From positions 1 to 24,975 of the forward strand of contig JBBTSN010000053.1 in NCBI GenBank assembly GCA_038078775.1: a stretch of 24,975 nt of DNA, in the 5' to 3' direction. The DNA is from Patescibacteria group bacterium (lineage in GTDB: Bacteria; Patescibacteriota; Patescibacteriia; UBA9934). Shown here piece by piece: positions 17,907 to 24,364 of the stretch (position 1 is its first letter; each line of letters starts with the position of its first letter). Below the pieces are notes generated by a model. That model had not been told where the DNA came from, searched no databases, and saw nothing but the letters and a program-made list of their open reading frames with translations. Position numbers and translations under genes: made by a program.

Positions 17907-18377
17907 CTACTCTCCAATAACCACCGGAACTCTCAGCGAATCTTCATTTTCAGGAAGCCCAGAAGGATTGTCTTTTTGCAGAACAAGTGTTCCCGCATCG
18001 CCGACGATTTGAGCGTCTGCAGTAAACGTAATCGTTGCAGTGAAAGGAACGTAATCGCTCGTCATCCAGTCGCTCTGTGCTTGTGCAATGCCTTGTCCGA
18101 GCATGTTTCCATGCGCATCAAGAAGATAGATAGGGAAGCTTGCTTCAAAAAACCACGAACCGCGCGCTTCTCCACTCACAATAAAGGGACTATTCACCGT
18201 TGCGTGAAGAAGGGGCGTATCAAGAACAACGTCGTCCGTTTCTGCTGAGGTGAGGTAGGTAAAACGAGGTTGAACTTCTTGCGGATTAGTAGGGGTCGGT
18301 GCGTAAAGTGATGCGGCATACAATCCACCTGCAAGAACAATGAGAACGCCGAACACGATCAAAAAGCTTTTCCCCAT
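17907..18377 (-). CDS. Gmad2 immunoglobulin-like domain protein, membrane anchored
   Basis: N-terminal TM, then SPFIVSGEARGSWFFEASFPI...AQSDWMT...KDNPSGLP. Confidence 0.82.
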   Translation of the reverse strand: MGKSFLIVFGVLIVLAGGLYAASLYAPTPTNPQEVQPRFTYLTSAETDDVVLDTPLLHATVNSPFIVSGEARGSWFFEASFPIYLLDAHGNMLGQGIAQAQSDWMTSDYVPFTATITFTADAQIVGDAGTLVLQKDNPSGLPENEDSLRVPVVIGE

Positions 18378-18417
18378 AGGATTTCACTATACTCTCTCCA
18401 CGTGCCTTTGCCTCGAG

Positions 18418-18489
18418 GGCTACTTTACTGAACTGGGGAGTATTTATGTTGAGGTGAAGATCGGTATGGATAAGATGCAAGCGAATTGT
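18418..18489 (+). repeat. Cassette left-end repeat, copy 1 (degenerate, core lost)
   Basis: TTTACTGAACTGGGGAGTATTTATGTTGAGGTGAAGATCGGTATGGATAAGATGCAA aligns with copies 2-4. Confidence 0.85.
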
Positions 18490-18544
18490 CAGCTTATTGG
18501 ATCACCATCATCGCAACACGAGTTACGTCAGTATGAGGCGCGCT

Positions 18545-19477: not shown

Positions 19478-19686
19478 GATTGAGGCTCGATGGCTAATGT
19501 AGAATGTACCTTAATTCGCCTGATAAATCCACCGAGAACTGTGGTCGGGGTTCGAGCCGAAAAAATAAGGTAAATTTGGCATTTCGGGCATTTAAGAAAA
19601 ATTCGTCTGTTTTGCGTCCCGGGCGCTTCGGTTTTCAATGACGACTTTTTGACAAGGCATGTGGGGTCACCTCACGCGCCTTCTCA

Positions 19687-19771
19687 TGGTTCCCTAGGTT
19701 ACCCTTTTACCGAACTGGGGAGTATTTACGCTGGAGTGAAGGTCAGCATGGAGAAGATGCAGTCAAACTGC
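19687..19771 (+). repeat. Core (TGGTTCC) plus cassette left-end repeat, copy 2
   Basis: TGGTTCCCTAGGTTACCCTTTTACCGAACTGGGGAGTATTTACGCTGGAGTGAAGGTCAGCATGGAGAAGATGCAG. Confidence 0.9.
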
Positions 19772-19881
19772 CATTTTTTCAAAGAGAATCAATAATTTGT
19801 GTCGCAACCTGTTCTGAGGTGAGAAGATTTGTAGTATTCGTTCGGTGATTATTTAATTTCAATTTCTTTTTCTGTTAAATC

Positions 19882-20946
19882 CTACAACTTTACATACCGC
19901 GTTCCTGGACCGCGGCCAATCCGTTTTACTTTTCCAAGCTCAATCAACCGATCTAGTCCTTGGCGGACGGTCGGCATGAGAATATCGGTCGCTTTTACAA
20001 CTTCGCTCGGGCTTGCTTCACCAACATTGGAGATAAATTTCCAGACTTCGTACTGTTTAGGCGAGAGCGTATCCTCGAATTTTTCTTCTTGCAGATAAAT
20101 GAGTGCCTTTGTCACTTGTTCTTTTACAACCGCAAGGAAGAAGTTAAGCCACGGCGAGATTGTATCCTTTTCGGTACGGAAAGTTTCCTGTGATTTACGC
20201 AGTGCGATGTAGTACTCGTCCTTTCGCTTCTCGACAAGTTGCTCATGCGAGACGTATTGTACGAATTGATATCCAGATCGAAGCAAGAGAAGATTTGTCA
20301 GGACACGCGAAAGACGCCCGTTGCCATCTTCAAACGGGTGAATCCTCAAGAACTCAACGATAAAGTTTGCGATGATGAGCAGCGGATGAAACCGATTATT
20401 GTCGAAGGCATCAGCCGTCCATTCCACAAGCTCCTGCATTTCTTTTGGTGTCAGGTAGGCAGGAGTCGTCTCGAACATGATGCGCACAGCTTTGCCATCC
20501 GGACCAAGCACACCGACGGTATTTTCTTTTTTCTTGTATGCTCCGCGCTGCTGTTCATCTTTTGTTGAGTATTTGAGGAGCTCCTTGTGGAGCGACTGAA
20601 TCGTGCCATCTCGAAGCGGTAGCGTTTGGAAGCTATCAAAAACATTTTGCAGCGTCTCAAGGTATCCCTGCACTTCTTGCGAATCTCGATCGGCAAACTT
20701 TGAAACGGCAAGACCTTGCATGATTTTCTGCACTTCCTCGTCGGTAAGTTTCGCGCCTTCAATACGTGTAGATGCACCAGCCGAAGTCACGAGCGTTGAT
20801 CGTTTGAGATTGGTAATTGCCTGCGGTGTCATTCGAAGACCAGATTTAAACTCCCCACGAATACCGTCAATTTCAGCTAAAAGAGCCACGATGTGTGGTT
20901 CGGGCGTTTTTACTCGATGGTCGAACTTTAAGGTGTTTTGGTCCAT
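19882..20946 (-). CDS. Fic family protein with C-terminal winged-HTH
   Basis: STRIEG inhibitory motif, HPFEDGNGRLSR catalytic motif, and a C-terminal wHTH ending IGRGPGTRY. Confidence 0.93.
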   Translation of the reverse strand: MDQNTLKFDHRVKTPEPHIVALLAEIDGIRGEFKSGLRMTPQAITNLKRSTLVTSAGASTRIEGAKLTDEEVQKIMQGLAVSKFADRDSQEVQGYLETLQNVFDSFQTLPLRDGTIQSLHKELLKYSTKDEQQRGAYKKKENTVGVLGPDGKAVRIMFETTPAYLTPKEMQELVEWTADAFDNNRFHPLLIIANFIVEFLRIHPFEDGNGRLSRVLTNLLLLRSGYQFVQYVSHEQLVEKRKDEYYIALRKSQETFRTEKDTISPWLNFFLAVVKEQVTKALIYLQEEKFEDTLSPKQYEVWKFISNVGEASPSEVVKATDILMPTVRQGLDRLIELGKVKRIGRGPGTRYVKL

Positions 20947-20953
20947 AAATGTT

Positions 20954-20987
20954 ACTGATATTTACAATGTATCAGATTATATCAGTT
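20954..20987 (-). promoter_or_regulatory. Extended -10 promoter overlapped by CTGATA/TATCAG inverted repeats upstream of fic
   Basis: TG-A-TATAAT on - (20976-20984). Inverted repeat ACTGATAT (20954-61)/ATATCAGT (20979-86), plus an extra TATCAG at 20970-75. Confidence 0.55.
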
Positions 20988-21049
20988 GATAGCAGATAGA
21001 GCAATATGGGCAGCTGTCTTTGCCTTGAATATGACTCATTTAAAACAAA

Positions 21050-21150
21050 GAAAAAACGACCAGTTTTCACCAGTCATTTCTTCGTGGCTCCGCGTCGTAG
21101 ATGATGTTAGAACCGCAATCGAGCAACGCCAGGGATTTATTACCATCCTT
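21050..21150 (+). repeat. Second-type cassette junction: imperfect hairpin, TGGCTCCG core and recombinase-tail-like sequence
   Basis: TGGCTCCG at 21085-21092 equals the last 8 nt of the tRNA. It reads through as KNDQFSPVISSWLRVVDDVRT. Confidence 0.6.
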
Positions 21151-21172
21151 AATCTTACGTCGCTCACAAGGC

Positions 21173-21790
21173 CTACTCATTGAACCAACGATCATGAATT
21201 TTCTGGAGAGTATCTTTATCTAGTTCGAAACCTGACACATCTGGTAGAACGGCATCGATACTACAGTGTGGGCACATCGCAGTACGCTCTATAGGCATAA
21301 AATCGTCAGGCGTAATCTCTGTCGCGGGATAGACTTTTAAACAATAGTAGCAGCCAACGTTTTTACTTCTCCGAATCGCATCCTCATTATTAGTAGCGTG
21401 TTTAATCGCATCTTCAACTTTTGGCGTGAAACTATTAATACCCTTATCCGCCTGTTTCTGCCTAGCCTCATGAATAAGCATAGCTATCTCATGTGGCTTC
21501 TGACTTCTTACTCGTTCAATGATTGCGTTAGGCGTATTCAAATCGTCCTCAACAACCCCTCCGATATCAACTATTTTTTGTGCCAGGTCACTCTTGGCAA
21601 ATTGCTCTAATAAAAAATCCTTTCCTAATTCGGTAATATCACTTTCACCAATACACATTTCATTAAGAAGGCTTTGGAGCATCTCAGAATTCTCAAAGTC
21701 TTCTTTGAAAAATTCTTTCTTATCAGACTTGTAGTTTCTGTATCCAAGGATTCCCTTCTCAATTGTTATTGTGCTATCGGATGAGTTCAT
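21173..21790 (-). CDS. Hypothetical protein with a C-terminal Cys4 zinc-binding domain
   Basis: GCYYC...TAMCPHCSIDAVL...HDRWF at the C-terminus; acidic N-terminal region of unknown type. Confidence 0.8.
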   Translation of the reverse strand: MNSSDSTITIEKGILGYRNYKSDKKEFFKEDFENSEMLQSLLNEMCIGESDITELGKDFLLEQFAKSDLAQKIVDIGGVVEDDLNTPNAIIERVRSQKPHEIAMLIHEARQKQADKGINSFTPKVEDAIKHATNNEDAIRRSKNVGCYYCLKVYPATEITPDDFMPIERTAMCPHCSIDAVLPDVSGFELDKDTLQKIHDRWFNE

Positions 21791-21820: not shown

Positions 21821-21970
21821 ACTGTATCAGTTCTAACCCCATCCCGGGTAGTCCCAAAACAATAACAAAACCCCAGCATTTCTACTGAGGCTTCATTGGC
21901 TCCCTAGATTACCTTTTTACCGAATTGGCAAGCATTTACGCTGAGGTCAAGGTGAGTATGGAGCATTTGC
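21821..21970 (+). repeat. Full cassette junction: right-end module, TGGCTCC core and left-end repeat copy 3
   Basis: ACTGTATCAGTTC (21821-33), 63 nt, TGGCTCC (21897), then CTAGATTACCTTTTTACCGAATTGGCAAGCATTTAC…. Confidence 0.88.
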
Positions 21971-21988
21971 AAAATTCATTGAATCCTT

Positions 21989-22813
21989 CTAGACGCATCC
22001 TTCAACCTGAAACTTAGGACGTAACTGTGTCCAATGCTCCCTGAGCTGTTTTTCTATAAAACCAGCTTTAATAAGACGCTGTTCAACGGTATCGATGATA
22101 TCAGTAATAGACCTTTGGATTTCATGTGTCTCGGTCATGTTAAGGAGCAAGTCAATTTGAGTACAAAACTCATTTTCACCGAGATCACGGAGACTAGGGT
22201 ATATATGCTTTTCAAACACAGGATAGCGATCATTTATCATGATGAGCGCATTGGCTAGCAGTTTCACTATCTGTAAACTCAACGAGCGTACATAGAGATT
22301 ATTTTTACGCTCTACAGCTACGACCAGACGATCTTCAAATACAAAAACAGATTCAGCAAAAAGCCATTGGATCTTTTCTTGCAATACCTCACTTGGATAC
22401 CATTTGATCTTTGATTGAATTGTTTTATAGCGATCATGTGGGTCAAGAACGACGAGTGCTGCCGCGTGTTCACGTAAAGCCGAATCGTGATCCCAATCGG
22501 TCAAAGAATTTTCCAATTCGCTAAACGTCATTGGGGAGTGAAGTTGAATCGGAAGTTTTTGTTCCCGTAAGCTCATCTTATACTTTTTAACAACTTCCTT
22601 AATCATAACCCGATCAGATTCGTTCTCGAATAACAGATCACAATCAATGTCACTATATCGATCATAGTGATTCGAGGGTACGGATCCCGTGAGTACGAGG
22701 CTCAACTTATCCTTTAATTCAGGATATTGGCTGAAACAATCTTTTTCAATAAAATCTCTAAAAAGATGTACGATTTCTTCTTGTGAATGTTTATAGAAAT
22801 TTTCCAAGGTCAT
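21989..22813 (-). CDS. Pol-beta superfamily nucleotidyltransferase domain protein (DUF4037-like architecture)
   Basis: LVLTGSV...DRYSDIDCDLL (GS/DxD motif), followed by a helical C-terminal domain. Confidence 0.82.
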   Translation of the reverse strand: MTLENFYKHSQEEIVHLFRDFIEKDCFSQYPELKDKLSLVLTGSVPSNHYDRYSDIDCDLLFENESDRVMIKEVVKKYKMSLREQKLPIQLHSPMTFSELENSLTDWDHDSALREHAAALVVLDPHDRYKTIQSKIKWYPSEVLQEKIQWLFAESVFVFEDRLVVAVERKNNLYVRSLSLQIVKLLANALIMINDRYPVFEKHIYPSLRDLGENEFCTQIDLLLNMTETHEIQRSITDIIDTVEQRLIKAGFIEKQLREHWTQLRPKFQVEGCV

Positions 22814-22822
22814 ATTGAAGCT

Positions 22823-22970
22823 AGTGTATCAGTTCGGTAAGAAATCTGGGAGGTATTCAAAAATATAAAAATCCCTAGCGAATTGCTAGAGATTTTTATG
22901 GCTCCCTAGGTTACCTTTTTACCGAACTGGGGAGTATTTATTCCGAAGTGAAGATCAGCATGGATAAACT
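22823..22970 (+). repeat. Full cassette junction: right-end module, TGGCTCC core and left-end repeat copy 4
   Basis: AGTGTATCAGTTC (22823-35), 63 nt, TGGCTCC (22899). 22863-22905 is an exact 43-bp copy of 23821-23863. Confidence 0.92.
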
Positions 22971-23044
22971 ACGGAGCACGGTGACTCGTTAAGCCCTACC
23001 CTCTACAGAGTATTTCATGGGTTTTTTTGGTATAGTTAAGGAAT

Positions 23045-23368
23045 ATGAAGCAAGCGAGATATAAATTGATTGTACATTCACCCTTAACGCACTCGAAGAT
23101 AATCAGAGATGCACTTGGTGAAATTGGCGCTGGCAAGGTTGGAAACTACGATTTCTGCTCCTTTTCTTATTCTGGCATAGGCCGCTTTCGCGGAAATGAG
23201 AAATCGAAACCTGCTATTGGAGTACCTGGACGGATAGAGGAAGTCGAGGAGGAATCTATAGAGGTAGTGATAGTGGAAGACGTTTTGCGATTAGCCATTC
23301 AAAAACTAAAAGAGGTTCATCCCTATGAAGAGCCTGCTTACGAAGTCTATAAGTTGGAAGATTTCTAA
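23045..23368 (+). CDS. YqfO/NIF3-insert (PII/CutA-like) domain protein
   Basis: GAGKVGNYDFCSF...GIGRF...PAIG...VHPYEEPAYEVY. Confidence 0.9.
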   Translation: MKQARYKLIVHSPLTHSKIIRDALGEIGAGKVGNYDFCSFSYSGIGRFRGNEKSKPAIGVPGRIEEVEEESIEVVIVEDVLRLAIQKLKEVHPYEEPAYEVYKLEDF

Positions 23369-23377
23369 AGCAACAAA

Positions 23378-23770
23378 TTAACGGTTTTTATCAAGGTAAT
23401 CTTTTACCCCCTCAAACAGCGTGGGCATGTAAGTCTGAAGTTTGTCGACATCGATCCAAGTGAAGGATTCGGCATCAATATCTTTGGGAATACTTAGCGT
23501 TTGTTCAGAGTTTTTCTCGCAATGAAAGTAGTAAGTATGGTTCTTGGTGGAAGGATGAATTCTTTCACCAATCTTTCTCATTACTTTTATATCCAAATTT
23601 GTTTGTCTTTTAACTTCTTCAATTAACTCTTTTTCGGCATTCTCCTTATCTTGAACGCTTTCGCAGGGAAATGTATACCTGAGCCCATCATAATCACTCA
23701 GTTTCTCAGGTTTTATTTCACCGATCAGGGCTTTGTCGCCGTCCAGGATAATGGCCAATGCAATATTCAT
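23378..23770 (-). CDS. NUDIX-fold protein with a degenerate Nudix box
   Basis: Start reassigned to ATG 23770 (MNIALAIILDGDKALIG). Nudix-box region reads YTFPCESVQDKENAEKELIEEVKRQTNLDI; C-terminal FTWIDVDKL. Confidence 0.72.
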   Translation of the reverse strand: MNIALAIILDGDKALIGEIKPEKLSDYDGLRYTFPCESVQDKENAEKELIEEVKRQTNLDIKVMRKIGERIHPSTKNHTYYFHCEKNSEQTLSIPKDIDAESFTWIDVDKLQTYMPTLFEGVKDYLDKNR

Positions 23771-23780
23771 AGTTAGTAAA

Positions 23781-23863
23781 ACTATATCAGTTCGACACCC
23801 ATTTGGGGTAATCCAAAAATATATAAAAATCCCTAGCGAATTGCTAGAGATTTTTATGGCTCC
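23781..23863. repeat. Cassette right-end module abutting the tRNA 3' end (includes a terminator-like hairpin)
   Basis: ACTATATCAGTTC (23781-93), 63 nt, TGGCTCC (23857). Hairpin AAAAATCCCTAGC-GAATT-GCTAGAGATTTTT. Confidence 0.9.
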
Positions 23864-23897
23864 GGGGGAGGGGATCGAACCCTCGACCTGAGGATTA

Positions 23898-24281
23898 CAC
23901 ATTGTCTCTCGGTTTCCCGAAAGGGTGGACTATATCACCATCCTTGATATGAAGTGAGTAATCTCTACTACATATCTTTCGGATGCGAGGCGCTTCCGGC
24001 GACGTTACCGTCGGCGTACTCCCTTGCGGGATAGTCTCTGAACCTTCCCAATGACCTCTGTCATTTTGGGCTTGGCTGCTGATTACCATGTCCGCAATGC
24101 GGACGAAGGCTTCCAGACAATTCACCTCGTTTTCATTCCAGAATTTCTCCTGGAAGCTGCGTAATACCCGCGTGAACTTCACGATGACAGCTAGTGCAAG
24201 ACGCACGCTTTATCGTTTCGGCACGTTGGGCATAGGTTCGTTTCTCAACCATATGTTTAAAGTATAGTTGGAAACAGTGCC
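23898..24281 (-). ncRNA. Group I intron (subgroup IA-like), 384 nt, inserted at tRNA position 35/36
   Basis: P AATTGTCTGGAA, Q AATCAGCAGCC, R GTTCAGAGACTA, S GATATAGTCC. P3 GAGGUG/CGCCUC, P7 GACUA/UAGUC, P7.1/P7.2 hairpins, GAAA-capped P9, and terminal G. Confidence 0.93.
24133..24252 (-). pseudogene. Internally deleted HNH homing endonuclease remnant inside the intron
   Basis: 39-aa ORF MVEKRTYAQRAETIKRASCTSCHREVHAGITQLPGEILE*; CxxCHREVH is the terminal Zn/HNH motif. Confidence 0.65.
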
Positions 24282-24339
24282 ACAGTCCTTCGCTCTGCCG
24301 CTGAGCTACCCCGGAACATATTTCCTGATTTCTTCTTCT

Positions 24340-24364
24340 TGCCTCCGCGGGTGGGAATCGAACC
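24340..24364 (-). pseudogene. Orphan tRNA 3'-half fragment (Asn-like acceptor)
   Basis: On -: GGTTCGATTCCCACCCGCGGAGGCA (T-loop, 3' T-stem, acceptor CCGCGGA, G73, GCA). No matching 5' half upstream. Confidence 0.6.

Follow-up and report, generated by a model that had tools for sequence, protein, structure and literature searches.

In staphylococci, the SCC elements (SCCmec among them) are inserted by large serine recombinases at the 3′ end of the conserved gene rlmH (orfX), where they form tandem arrays with short direct repeats and where members that lack a recombinase are mobilised in trans. These elements measure kilobases to tens of kilobases, and to our knowledge they have no common terminator-promoter end module. 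Phage morons are single accessory genes that carry their own promoter and intrinsic terminator and are expressed independently of their surroundings; we know of no conserved common end sequence in them and of no recombination cores that bound them. Among the tycheposons of Prochlorococcus, 910 of 937 elements have tyrosine recombinases, and the paper that describes them reports no conserved promoter-terminator end and uses the word "promoter" 0 times (10.1101/2020.12.28.424599).

How accessory genes are gained and expressed in CPR bacteria, whose genomes measure about 1 Mb, is poorly known. We analysed a stretch of 24,975 nucleotides (the window) from a groundwater Patescibacteria group bacterium, in which small cassettes without a recombinase gene are stacked behind a tRNA-Asn gene. 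At the tRNA-proximal end of these cassettes lies a conserved module that is probably (at roughly 0.7, judging from its sequence) a compact and portable terminator-promoter joint. We found no description in the literature of a tRNA-linked cassette system with a terminator-promoter end, nor of leaderless promoters in Patescibacteria.

The tRNA-Asn locus and its cassettes

The locus comprises the following features.
23857..24315, minus strand: tRNA-Asn(GTT) gene (exon 1, 24315-24282; group I intron, 24281-23898; exon 2, 23897-23857)
23857..23863, minus strand: core GGAGCCA, the junction common to all cassettes, taken from the 3′ end of tRNA-Asn(GTT): the final 3 bases of the acceptor stem, then the discriminator G and the encoded CCA
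22899..22905, minus strand: core copy (core repeat) at junction J2, cassettes A/B
21897..21903, minus strand: core copy (core repeat) at junction J1
23378..23770, minus strand: cassette A cargo, NUDIX-domain protein of 130 aa (Pfam PF00293)
21989..22813, minus strand: cassette B cargo, nucleotidyltransferase with a DUF4037 domain (Pfam), 274 aa
21173..21790, minus strand: cassette C2 cargo, 205-aa protein with no Pfam match
19882..20946, minus strand: cassette C1 cargo, 354-aa protein with a Fic domain, whose DNA shares 82% identity with the G044 copy
22906..22998, plus strand: left-end repeat, "tail" type 1, of cassette A (frame GSLGYLFTELGSIY...)
21092..21180, plus strand: left-end repeat, type 2, of cassette C2 (frame WLRVVDDVRT...)

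The intron matches the group I family of Rfam (RF00028, 80.7 bits), and removal of 23898-24281 leaves a 75-nt tRNA-Asn(gtt) that ends in GGAGCCA, as called by ARAGORN on the spliced sequence. Further copies of the type 1 left-end repeat lie at 21904-21985, 19694-19799 and 18411-18520. The cargo that adjoins such modules consists of enzymes (NUDIX, nucleotidyltransferases, Fic, a methyltransferase, an APH-type kinase, a uridine-kinase-like protein and a creatininase) together with DUF1761 and unknown proteins. Over 933 nt, cassette B shares 89.5% identity with a cassette of a different genus (G023), and the pilB/pilC DNA of the two genera is about 70% identical; by these sequence identities, cassettes have moved between genera. 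The J3 module, next to the tRNA gene, is 96% identical to a module in the relative G056, where the cargo is unrelated.

Anatomy and spread of the module

Read on the tRNA strand, the module consists of five parts, namely the core GGAGCCA, a hairpin with a U-tract, YTACCC-N5-GGGKT, CGAAC and an extended -10 of the form TGRTAnAnT, and it measures 76 bp, or 83 nt with the core. The window holds four modules, with these parts.
23823..23857, minus strand: J3 hairpin, 15-bp stem and 5-nt loop, then U-tract, directly after the tRNA (MFE -18.1 kcal/mol, z -5.5)
23797..23811, minus strand: J3 element TTACCC-N5-GGGT, a small inverted repeat in the -35/spacer region, at a position conserved in modules
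23781..23793, minus strand: J3 box, CGAAC plus extended -10, TGATATAGT, with the NUDIX gene ATG 10 nt downstream
22865..22899, minus strand: J2 hairpin, same sequence as the J3 hairpin
22823..22835, minus strand: J2 box, extended -10, TGATACACT, with the nucleotidyltransferase gene ATG 9 nt downstream
21864..21897, minus strand: J1 hairpin, with another stem sequence and a 4-nt loop (z -4.2)
21821..21833, minus strand: J1 box, extended -10, TGATACAGT, with the 205-aa gene ATG 30 nt downstream
20976..21091, minus strand: fourth, diverged module upstream of the Fic gene (hairpin z -4.65), with its core at 21085-21091, hairpin at 21050-21083 and box-like CAACTGATATAAT at 20976-20988

The 13-bp box, ASTRTATCAGTTC, has exact plus-strand matches at 21821, 22823 and 23781, and TGGCTCC stands at 21897, 22899 and 23857, so that each of the three spacers between box and core is exactly 63 nt long. 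These exact matches confirm what a first-pass annotation of the window had read at the three sites, and its comparison of the copies also stands: spacers 1 and 3 agree at 35 of 63 positions without gaps, and copies 2 and 3 end in an identical stretch of 43 nt, a count that includes the 7-nt core. The minus-strand reading of the box is GAACTGATAYAST, with an ATG 9, 10 and 30 nt further on. When up to two mismatches are allowed, the window has 5 matches to the box against 1.25 expected, a number reached in no shuffle; the strict box occurs at only 3 sites in the 954-kb assembly, all of them at the tRNA-Asn cassette locus. The diverged fourth module, whose box-like sequence reads ATTATATCAGTTG on the plus strand at 20976, has a spacing of 96 nt.

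We searched every one of the family's 68 genomes with gaps allowed and added genome and metagenome scans, which together gave 21 homologous modules. Of the 185,579 species scanned, only about 10, all from one family, showed the module. The hosts are Uhrbacteria-like CPR bacteria. The spacer is 63 nt in 14 of these modules and 62, 64, 65, 56, 52, 52 and 51 nt in the remainder, which makes 63 nt the modal spacing, preferred rather than obligatory. The annotation had called this distance invariant and had proposed more copies as a check on spacing and covariation; the additional copies brought compensatory changes in the stem, as set out below, and a spacing that varies from 51 to 65 nt, with 96 nt in one window copy. 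One further pattern match with a gap of 63, in G029, lies in coding sequence and has no hairpin, and we treated it as chance; the controls gave 5 hits. We also considered the module as the degraded 3′ end of a recombinase gene and set this aside, as it has no similarity to such ends beyond an A-rich run and a hairpin.

The modal spacing is the sum of rigid parts, with 34-35 nt of hairpin, 10-11 nt of U-tract, YTACCC and 12 nt more. One could instead regard the three copies as inert relics of recent duplication, their constant spacing reflecting a mere lack of indels, as would suit the 75% identity of copies 2 and 3 and the 43-nt suffix that they share. This is very improbable, since nine 63-nt spacers differ widely in sequence (median identity 56%, minimum 41%) without net change in length, the stems have undergone compensatory substitution and no copy departs from the others at the informative -10 positions.

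In each of the three copies with the exact box, a hairpin with a 15-bp stem begins at the last core base, the A of CCA, and runs into a U-tract, much as the annotation had placed a hairpin beside the core. A terminator scan found such a terminator-like hairpin directly after all four cores in the window, on the minus strand. In 8 of 8 modules tested the z-score lies between -3.6 and -7; the hairpins of the window give values of -4.2 to -5.5, and those of relatives cover the full span from -3.6 to -7. The stems are rather AT-rich, with 4 G-C pairs. Among 16 distinct versions of the hairpin, 225 of 240 stem cells are still paired, with compensatory changes, and seven stem positions use three or four pair types. 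Covariation was assessed from single-sequence folds and a stem-anchored count of pairs; given a MAFFT alignment of 14 modules, RNAalifold found no pairs, since such an alignment is blind to structure. The module thus has a stable stem-loop followed immediately by a U-rich tract on the transcribed strand, as intrinsic terminators do, and the stem with its U-tract, the z-scores and the compensatory changes support the annotation's view of the module as a putative terminator. We take the hairpin to be intrinsic-terminator-like, and it would end transcription arriving from the tRNA or from an upstream cassette.

A hairpin stands on the same side of the core at every junction, the chromosomal junctions of relatives included. 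This raises the possibility that the module is simply the native region downstream of tRNA-Asn, a terminator and a neighbour's promoter, that was copied into the junctions as an attachment-site identity block; attachment sites that target tRNA genes often have long identity blocks, and the 43 nt shared by copies 2 and 3, core included, could be one. Such an origin is nevertheless improbable. Module copies inside one genome are only 43-75% identical, the J2-type module accompanies the same nucleotidyltransferase cargo in two genera, the distal chromosomal junctions of relatives have the hairpin and lack the box, and the scans found the module only in the few species given above. For the terminator-promoter joint, the same arrangement has a consequence for the cassette: the crossover core would fall between the 3′ side of the cargo gene and the hairpin, and because every junction has a hairpin on that side of the core, a cassette probably keeps its promoter-gene-terminator unit whatever its neighbours.

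The extended -10 and the module-specific elements

All 13 of 13 family modules read TG-R-TA-n-A-n-T. The last four -10 positions, with A-9 and T-7, lay outside the search pattern, and the conserved TG, T-12, A-11, A-9 and T-7 fit a sigma-70-type promoter. An ATG follows 7-10 nt past the hexamer in 11 of 19 modules; seven others have it at 17-39 nt, with no clear ribosome-binding site, and one module has no ORF. Genome-wide, there are 105 cases of TGnTAnnnT followed at 6-11 nt by an ATG that opens an ORF, where about 27 would be expected, and the reversed motif, used as a control, gives a flat distance profile. This suggests that roughly 100 further genes of the genome have an extended -10 and a leaderless start. 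Both the sequence and the distance to the gene, as gauged within the same genome, are therefore those of a sigma-70-type extended -10. Because some 100 other genes show the same element near their ATG, we regard the -10 part of the module as a putative ordinary promoter for leaderless messages, a reading that the sequence evidence supports. A search for a -35 element found only a weak T bias in the general promoters and no -35 signal in the genome; TTACCC in the module would stand 19 bp from the -10. The extended -10, lying about 28 nt past the hairpin and having no canonical -35, would give a leaderless or near-leaderless cargo mRNA.

The proposal that the box is an extended -10 promoter for the cargo consequently gains support from the conserved positions and from the class of about 100 candidate promoters, and it is plausible, from hairpin and -10 together, that each cassette is an independent expression unit as the annotation had suggested. 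That annotation would have given up its reading of the box if the box occurred at ordinary promoters; its TGnTAnnnT part does so throughout the genome, and the full 13-mer is absent there.

Two parts of the module have no counterpart in these general promoters. YTACCC stands at spacer position 45 in all modules with 63-nt spacing except J2, and it holds this position although the hairpins measure 34 or 35 nt; in J1, a loop shorter by 1 nt is offset by 1 extra nt ahead of YTACCC. GAAC precedes the TG in 0 of 102 general promoters of the extended -10 type. The palindrome-plus-GAAC pattern and the box are absent outside modules in the recombinase-bearing loci, and YTACCC..GGGK alone has one stray match in the relatives' loci and four in the genome itself, none beside a box. 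CGAAC and YTACCC-N5-GGGKT are module-specific, and a promoter role does not explain them. A length held constant at a median identity of 56%, together with the compensating 1-nt shift, hints at a constraint beyond that of a simple promoter.

These elements bring in the question of whether the box and YTACCC-N5-GGGKT are mainly a site for a recombinase, an accessory protein or a directionality factor, phased with the core by 63 bp, or about six helical turns, with the promoter secondary. CGAAC and YTACCC are conserved and missing from general promoters, and part of the box recurs at the other end of the cassettes: the hexamer GAACTG, with which the box opens on the tRNA strand, stands at +19 to +24 past the core in both of the unrelated left-end types, in different frames (TEL vs VRT), and CAGTTCGGTAAGAA, adjoining the J2 box, matches the left-end repeat at 22916-22929 in inverted orientation at 13 of 14 positions. 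The tRNA has GAAC at +14 to +17, 5 bp nearer the core, which is the displacement reported for zinc-ribbon-domain motifs between attP and attB half-sites, the attB motif being the nearer to the crossover (PMC3783163). The GAACTG coincidence was noticed post hoc, however, and serine integrases are known to use sites of 40-50 bp that surround the crossover (PMC3783163). The box, at least 63 nt from the core, falls outside any such 40-50-bp site, and it stands more than 63 bp off in an orientation opposite to that of the right-hand motif. By inspection, the 25 bp left of the core are free of a mirrored GAACTG/CGAAC motif in every hairpin family. Modules with spacings of 51, 52, 56, 62, 64, 65 and 96 nt are still found at junctions, and degenerate copies hold TGnTAnnnT and lose or shift GAAC. 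A mainly recombinational role is thus unlikely, and the annotation's proposal of a recombinase or accessory binding site at the box finds no support here: the recombinases tied to the core in relatives are large serine recombinases, a class with known sites of 40-50 bp, and degenerate copies lose GAAC and keep the -10.

Proposed recombination at the core and comparison with known systems

Insertion of the cassettes at the core would fall to large serine recombinases from related elements. The window has no large serine recombinase gene. The genome encodes four at other sites, with only 23-36% identity to the enzymes that relatives have beside tRNA-Asn, and no cognate recombinase was found in the assembly (92.8% complete, 179 contigs). 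In three relatives, full large serine recombinase genes (Resolvase, Recombinase and Zn_ribbon_recom) adjoin tRNA-Asn and read through the core. The tRNA-Asn-linked recombinases include those of G056 (type 2) and G008 (type 1). In G056, the recombinase element sits exactly between a J3-type module and the tRNA, whereas the module abuts the tRNA here, so that the two loci form a natural before/after pair for a serine integrase site. The G056 insertion suggests that each insertion would restore a usable attB. Neither excision nor circles were evident in Logan contigs from four groundwater runs, in which the joints trace to relatives in the sample (e.g., the G056-type junction), to the 43-nt repeat and to intron-less tRNA-Asn variants.

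We speculate that module and left-end repeat could together bound the units of an integron-like system of CPR bacteria that works by serine recombinases. Cassettes would be inserted in trans at the tRNA-Asn core, attB (module hairpin, core and tRNA) would be restored, each cassette would have its own terminator and leaderless promoter, and CGAAC/YTACCC would serve as a second recognition or control site common to all cassettes; we consider this reading only tentatively. For the terminator-promoter joint itself, a conserved end of 83 nt would provide each imported gene with a terminator and a host-type promoter, and new genes would then be expressible on arrival and the 3′ end of the tRNA gene protected.

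Among described systems, the tycheposons and tRNA-linked islands of Prochlorococcus share with this locus the site-specific integration at a tRNA gene, the newer insertions that push older ones further in, and the scattered degraded remnants with attachment-site repeats; their repeats are partial tRNAs, whereas only 7 nt of the tRNA are repeated here (10.1101/2020.12.28.424599). The likeness to integron cassettes with attC lies in a single fixed site at which cassettes, mostly of one gene each and with diverse accessory cargo, form arrays, in the least degraded units being nearest the attachment point, and in a conserved cassette end that keeps structure more than sequence. In contrast to integrons, the attachment point here is the 3′ end of a tRNA, the site-linked enzymes of relatives belong to the large serine recombinases, and each cassette has its own putative promoter and terminator, where integron cassettes mostly use one platform promoter. 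The window has no IntI-type tyrosine recombinase beside the array, as an intI/attI/Pc platform would have, and Pfam PF00589 (Phage_integrase) matches a single gene of the genome, located on contig C161 with an open frame of 317 aa. Nor do the junctions have the form of attC: sequence similarity is lost to either side of the 7-nt core, and the core stands beside the hairpin and outside the outer inverted repeat. SCC/SCCmec elements are similar in their serine recombinases, their use of the 3′ end of a conserved gene and their arrays bounded by short direct repeats, and differ in that the recombinase gene of the relatives here reads through the crossover into the tRNA. With phage morons, finally, the cassettes have in common single genes bracketed by a promoter and a terminator, to which the present locus adds a common end and recombination cores.

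The tRNA-Asn core and the cassettes behind it

ARAGORN reported no tRNA on the unspliced sequence of the contig (C53, complete at 24,975 bp, from a 954-kb assembly of 179 contigs with a G+C content of 46.5%). Rfam identifies a minus-strand group I intron at 23906-24190, and excision in silico of 23898-24281 yields a 75-nt tRNA-Asn(GTT) that terminates in the 7-nt sequence GGAGCCA, complementary to TGGCTCC at 23857-23863. The core thus corresponds to the tRNA-Asn 3′-end, comprising three acceptor-stem bases, the discriminator, and the encoded CCA. Contigs of the source groundwater samples pass from 23897 straight into 24282, lacking window positions 23898-24281, and thus intron-less tRNA-Asn genes, from relatives or strains, coexist with the intron-bearing one. 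Separately, 25 nt upstream of tRNA-Asn there is an orphan 25-nt tRNA 3′-end fragment at 24340-24364 (minus strand, GGTTCGATTCCCACCCGCGGAGGCA); its full-length parent tRNA is absent from the assembly, and the fragment may mark a former attachment site.

The first-pass annotation had described three copies of a 13-bp box, each followed by 63 nt and then the core. These positions and spacers are exact, as are its hand counts: spacers 1 and 3 are identical at 35 of 63 positions, and copies 2 and 3 share a 43-nt suffix that includes the core. A hairpin beside the core was also reported, and a terminator scan finds one at all four junctions of the window, including a fourth that had gone unnoticed.

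Junctions and left-end repeats in the window
21821: box of the first junction module (J1); core TGGCTCC at 21897
22823: box of the second (J2); core at 22899
23781: box of the third (J3); core at 23857
20976: box-like ATTATATCAGTTG of the fourth junction, 96 nt from its core at 21085; own hairpin at 21050-21083
19687: further copy of the left-end repeat, with core variant TGGTTCC
near 18411: degraded copy of the left-end repeat

From the fourth junction and the extra left-end repeats, it follows that the array holds about five cassettes, the more degraded the farther they lie from the tRNA. In the oldest cassette, the right arm (19503-19686) has neither hairpin nor box and is a second kind of cassette end; its final 55 nt share 96% identity with junctions in one relative (G044) and in a metagenome contig (L059), and a tRNA-like T-arm fragment lies inside it near 19530-19560.

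A probable terminator and promoter in one module

The module is real and reaches into other genera. On the tRNA strand it reads GGAGCCA, hairpin, U-rich tract, YTACCC-N5/6-GGGKT (five or six variable bases), (C)GAAC, TG-R-TA-n-A-n-T, and ATG. The hairpin starts at the A of CCA and in most copies has a stem of 14-15 bp and a loop of 3-6 nt; two have weaker 12-pair stems, one of these with an 8-nt loop. The hairpins are much more stable in folding than shuffled sequences, with z of -3.6 to -7. Across 16 distinct hairpin versions, 225 of 240 stem cells are paired, a count biased towards structure because the pairs are taken from the individual fold of each version, and at seven stem positions three or four pair types occur, i.e., changes on both sides.

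The 63-nt distance, which had been called invariant, is better described as modal. Searching 68 family genomes with TAYCAGTTC-N{40,90}-TGGCTCS, which permits gaps of 40 to 90, gave 14 matches versus 5 for a reversed control, and 13 of the 14 are clear module homologues, with gaps of 63 (nine times, in five genera), 64, 56, 52, and 51. A second, more specific pattern with two free gaps, run against 185,579 species genomes and a metagenome collection, added six modules (63 in five, 62 in one) and found the module in this family only; alignment yielded two more, with gaps of 65 and about 52. Overall, the gap is exactly 63 nt in 14 of 21 modules, as found by searches that, one BLAST search excepted, were anchored partly on the box; other modules have 51-65 nt, and the fourth window junction 96. 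Spacers of equal length are 41-95% identical (median 56%). Nevertheless, YTACCC starts at spacer position 45, 12 nt from GAACTG, in every 63-type module that has it (J2 instead has ATACCT, 3 nt earlier), even though hairpin length differs between families (34 or 35 nt), an additional base being balanced within the U-tract. The distance is thus strongly preferred, and probably under some constraint, without being obligatory. A lone perfect box (GAACTGATATAGT, tRNA strand) at oriented position about 2996-3004 of L027, a contig of G023, has no core within 90 nt and may derive from a module that has lost its core side.

The distal end of the module has the appearance of a promoter. TG-n-TAnAnT is present in 13 of 13 family modules, and A at -9 and T at -7 are invariant even though they lay outside the search pattern; the hexamers are TATAAT, TATAGT, TACAGT, TACACT, TAGACT, TAAAGT, TAAACT, TAAAAT, and TATACT. 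An ATG opening an ORF of at least 45 codons follows the hexamer by 7-10 nt in 11 of 19 modules and by 17-39 nt in seven, and one has no ORF. Genome-wide, TGnTAnnnT is followed at 6-11 nt by the ATG of an ORF of at least 100 codons 105 times, versus about 27 expected from a background of 4-5 per distance, and the reversed control motif gives no peak there. This peak, together with the same layout in the modules, indicates that the TGRTAnAnT of the box is an ordinary promoter of the apparently common leaderless type of this genome, in which about 100 genes have such predicted promoters and leaderless transcription seems common. The strict 13-mer, in contrast to its TGnTAnnnT part, occurs only three times in the genome, all at this array. 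The 102 TGnTAnnnT promoter sites outside the array share no -35 consensus, and none of them has GAAC before the TG. CGAAC and YTACCC-N5-GGGKT are module-specific, occurring next to a box nowhere else, and the promoter reading leaves them unexplained. Taken together, the hairpin pair changes, the -10 conservation, and the genome-wide analogue make the proposed reading of the module as terminator plus promoter well supported by comparison.

Two further genes have similar signals. The 107-aa gene on the plus strand of cassette A (NUDIX) also has an extended -10 promoter (23027-23047). The first gene past the array, a Gmad2-domain gene on the minus strand with its ATG at 18377, has a TATAGT hexamer 8 nt upstream (18340-18400); it is probably the original tRNA-Asn neighbour, with a promoter of the same kind as those of the modules.

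Recombinases at tRNA-Asn and the possible role of the box

The opposite side of each core is occupied by the tRNA or by one of two conserved tails, type 1 translating as GSLxYLFTELGSIY and type 2, in another frame, as WLRVVxxVRT. In three relatives (G008, G056, and G049), full large serine recombinase genes of 525-593 aa adjoin tRNA-Asn on the opposite strand and read through the core into the tRNA complement; Resolvase and Recombinase domains are found in all three and Zn_ribbon_recom in two. G016, G023, and G062 retain C-terminal recombinase fragments only.

Large serine recombinase genes ending at tRNAs
L033:7163-8851, minus strand: tRNA-Asn-linked, in a relative
L029:3311-5089, minus strand: tRNA-Asn-linked, in a relative
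L032:4804-6378, minus strand: tRNA-Asn-linked, in a relative
contigs C46 and C94, strand opposite to the tRNA: own-genome genes ending in the 3′-ends of tRNA-Ala (one) and tRNA-Trp (the other)

In both G008 and G056, the far end of the island carries the tail type whose frame is the one used at the core, suggesting that in circular form the recombinase gene would continue into its own tail. The C-termini of recombinases whose genes end in an opposite-strand tRNA 3′-end would differ between integrated and excised states. The four large serine recombinases of the own genome are all distant from those linked to tRNA-Asn, leaving the array there without a visible cognate enzyme, and DNA contigs from the source samples contained no excision products. 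In G056, a recombinase-bearing element of about 11 kb is flanked immediately by a J3-type module on one side and the tRNA on the other, whereas in the window the same type of module directly adjoins the tRNA; this natural comparison argues that module-core-tRNA is a used integration site.

The first-pass annotation had thought a recombinase or accessory binding site probable within the 76-bp part, and several features bear on whether the box is such a site. GAACTG or GAACCG occupies +19 to +24 past the core in both of the unrelated tail types despite their differing frames, TEL versus VRT (window 22906-22935 and 21092-21120; L029, L027, and L061), and the GAAC of the tRNA lies 5 bp further inward, at +14 to +17, which fits the reported placement of the zinc-ribbon-domain motif of serine integrases, 5 bp further inward in attB than in attP (PMC3783163). 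The box holds the hexamer inverted, and around the J2 box 13 of 14 positions repeat the tail in inverted orientation, although the hexamer coincidence was spotted post hoc. However, the box is more than 63 bp from the core and known serine integrase sites cover 40-50 bp, no mirrored motif was found within 25 bp left of the core, real junctions have spacings of 51-65 and 96, and degraded modules keep the -10 while GAAC is lost or shifted. A recombinase site in the box is not supported by these data, and we consider it unlikely to be the main function of the box, which may nevertheless have a secondary role of this kind.

Proposed exchange of cassettes

Genes next to modules are diverse, including NUDIX, two kinds of nucleotidyltransferase, Fic, methyltransferase, APH-type phosphotransferase, a uridine-kinase-like P-loop protein, creatininase, DUF1761, and several unknowns. 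One module in G056 shares 96% identity with J3, but the likeness ends at the -10 and the cargo beyond is unrelated; together with the varied cargo, this indicates that the module acts as an end common to the cassettes rather than as a piece of any single gene. Cassette B (nucleotidyltransferase), module included, matches a cassette of G023, from a different genus, at 89.5% identity over 933 nt, and the Fic cassette matches one of G044 at 82%, whereas the pilB/pilC DNA of these genomes reaches 66-71% identity, in its best-conserved part only. These identities indicate that cassettes have moved between genera.

Returning to the terminator and promoter reading, we infer the steps of exchange from this anatomy. 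The crossover core sits between the downstream side of a cargo gene and a hairpin, and all partner sites carry a hairpin on that side of the core, including the 3′-ends of the recombinase genes, where it lies inside the coding sequence. After any exchange, the tRNA would still end in a putative terminator and each cargo gene would stay flanked by a putative promoter upstream and a putative terminator downstream; once a cassette is circular, its module hairpin would act as its own terminator. A need for the hairpin as terminator after every exchange would explain why its structure is kept while its sequence drifts. We place the system among tRNA-linked cassette islands, serine-recombinase arrays, and moron-like expression units.
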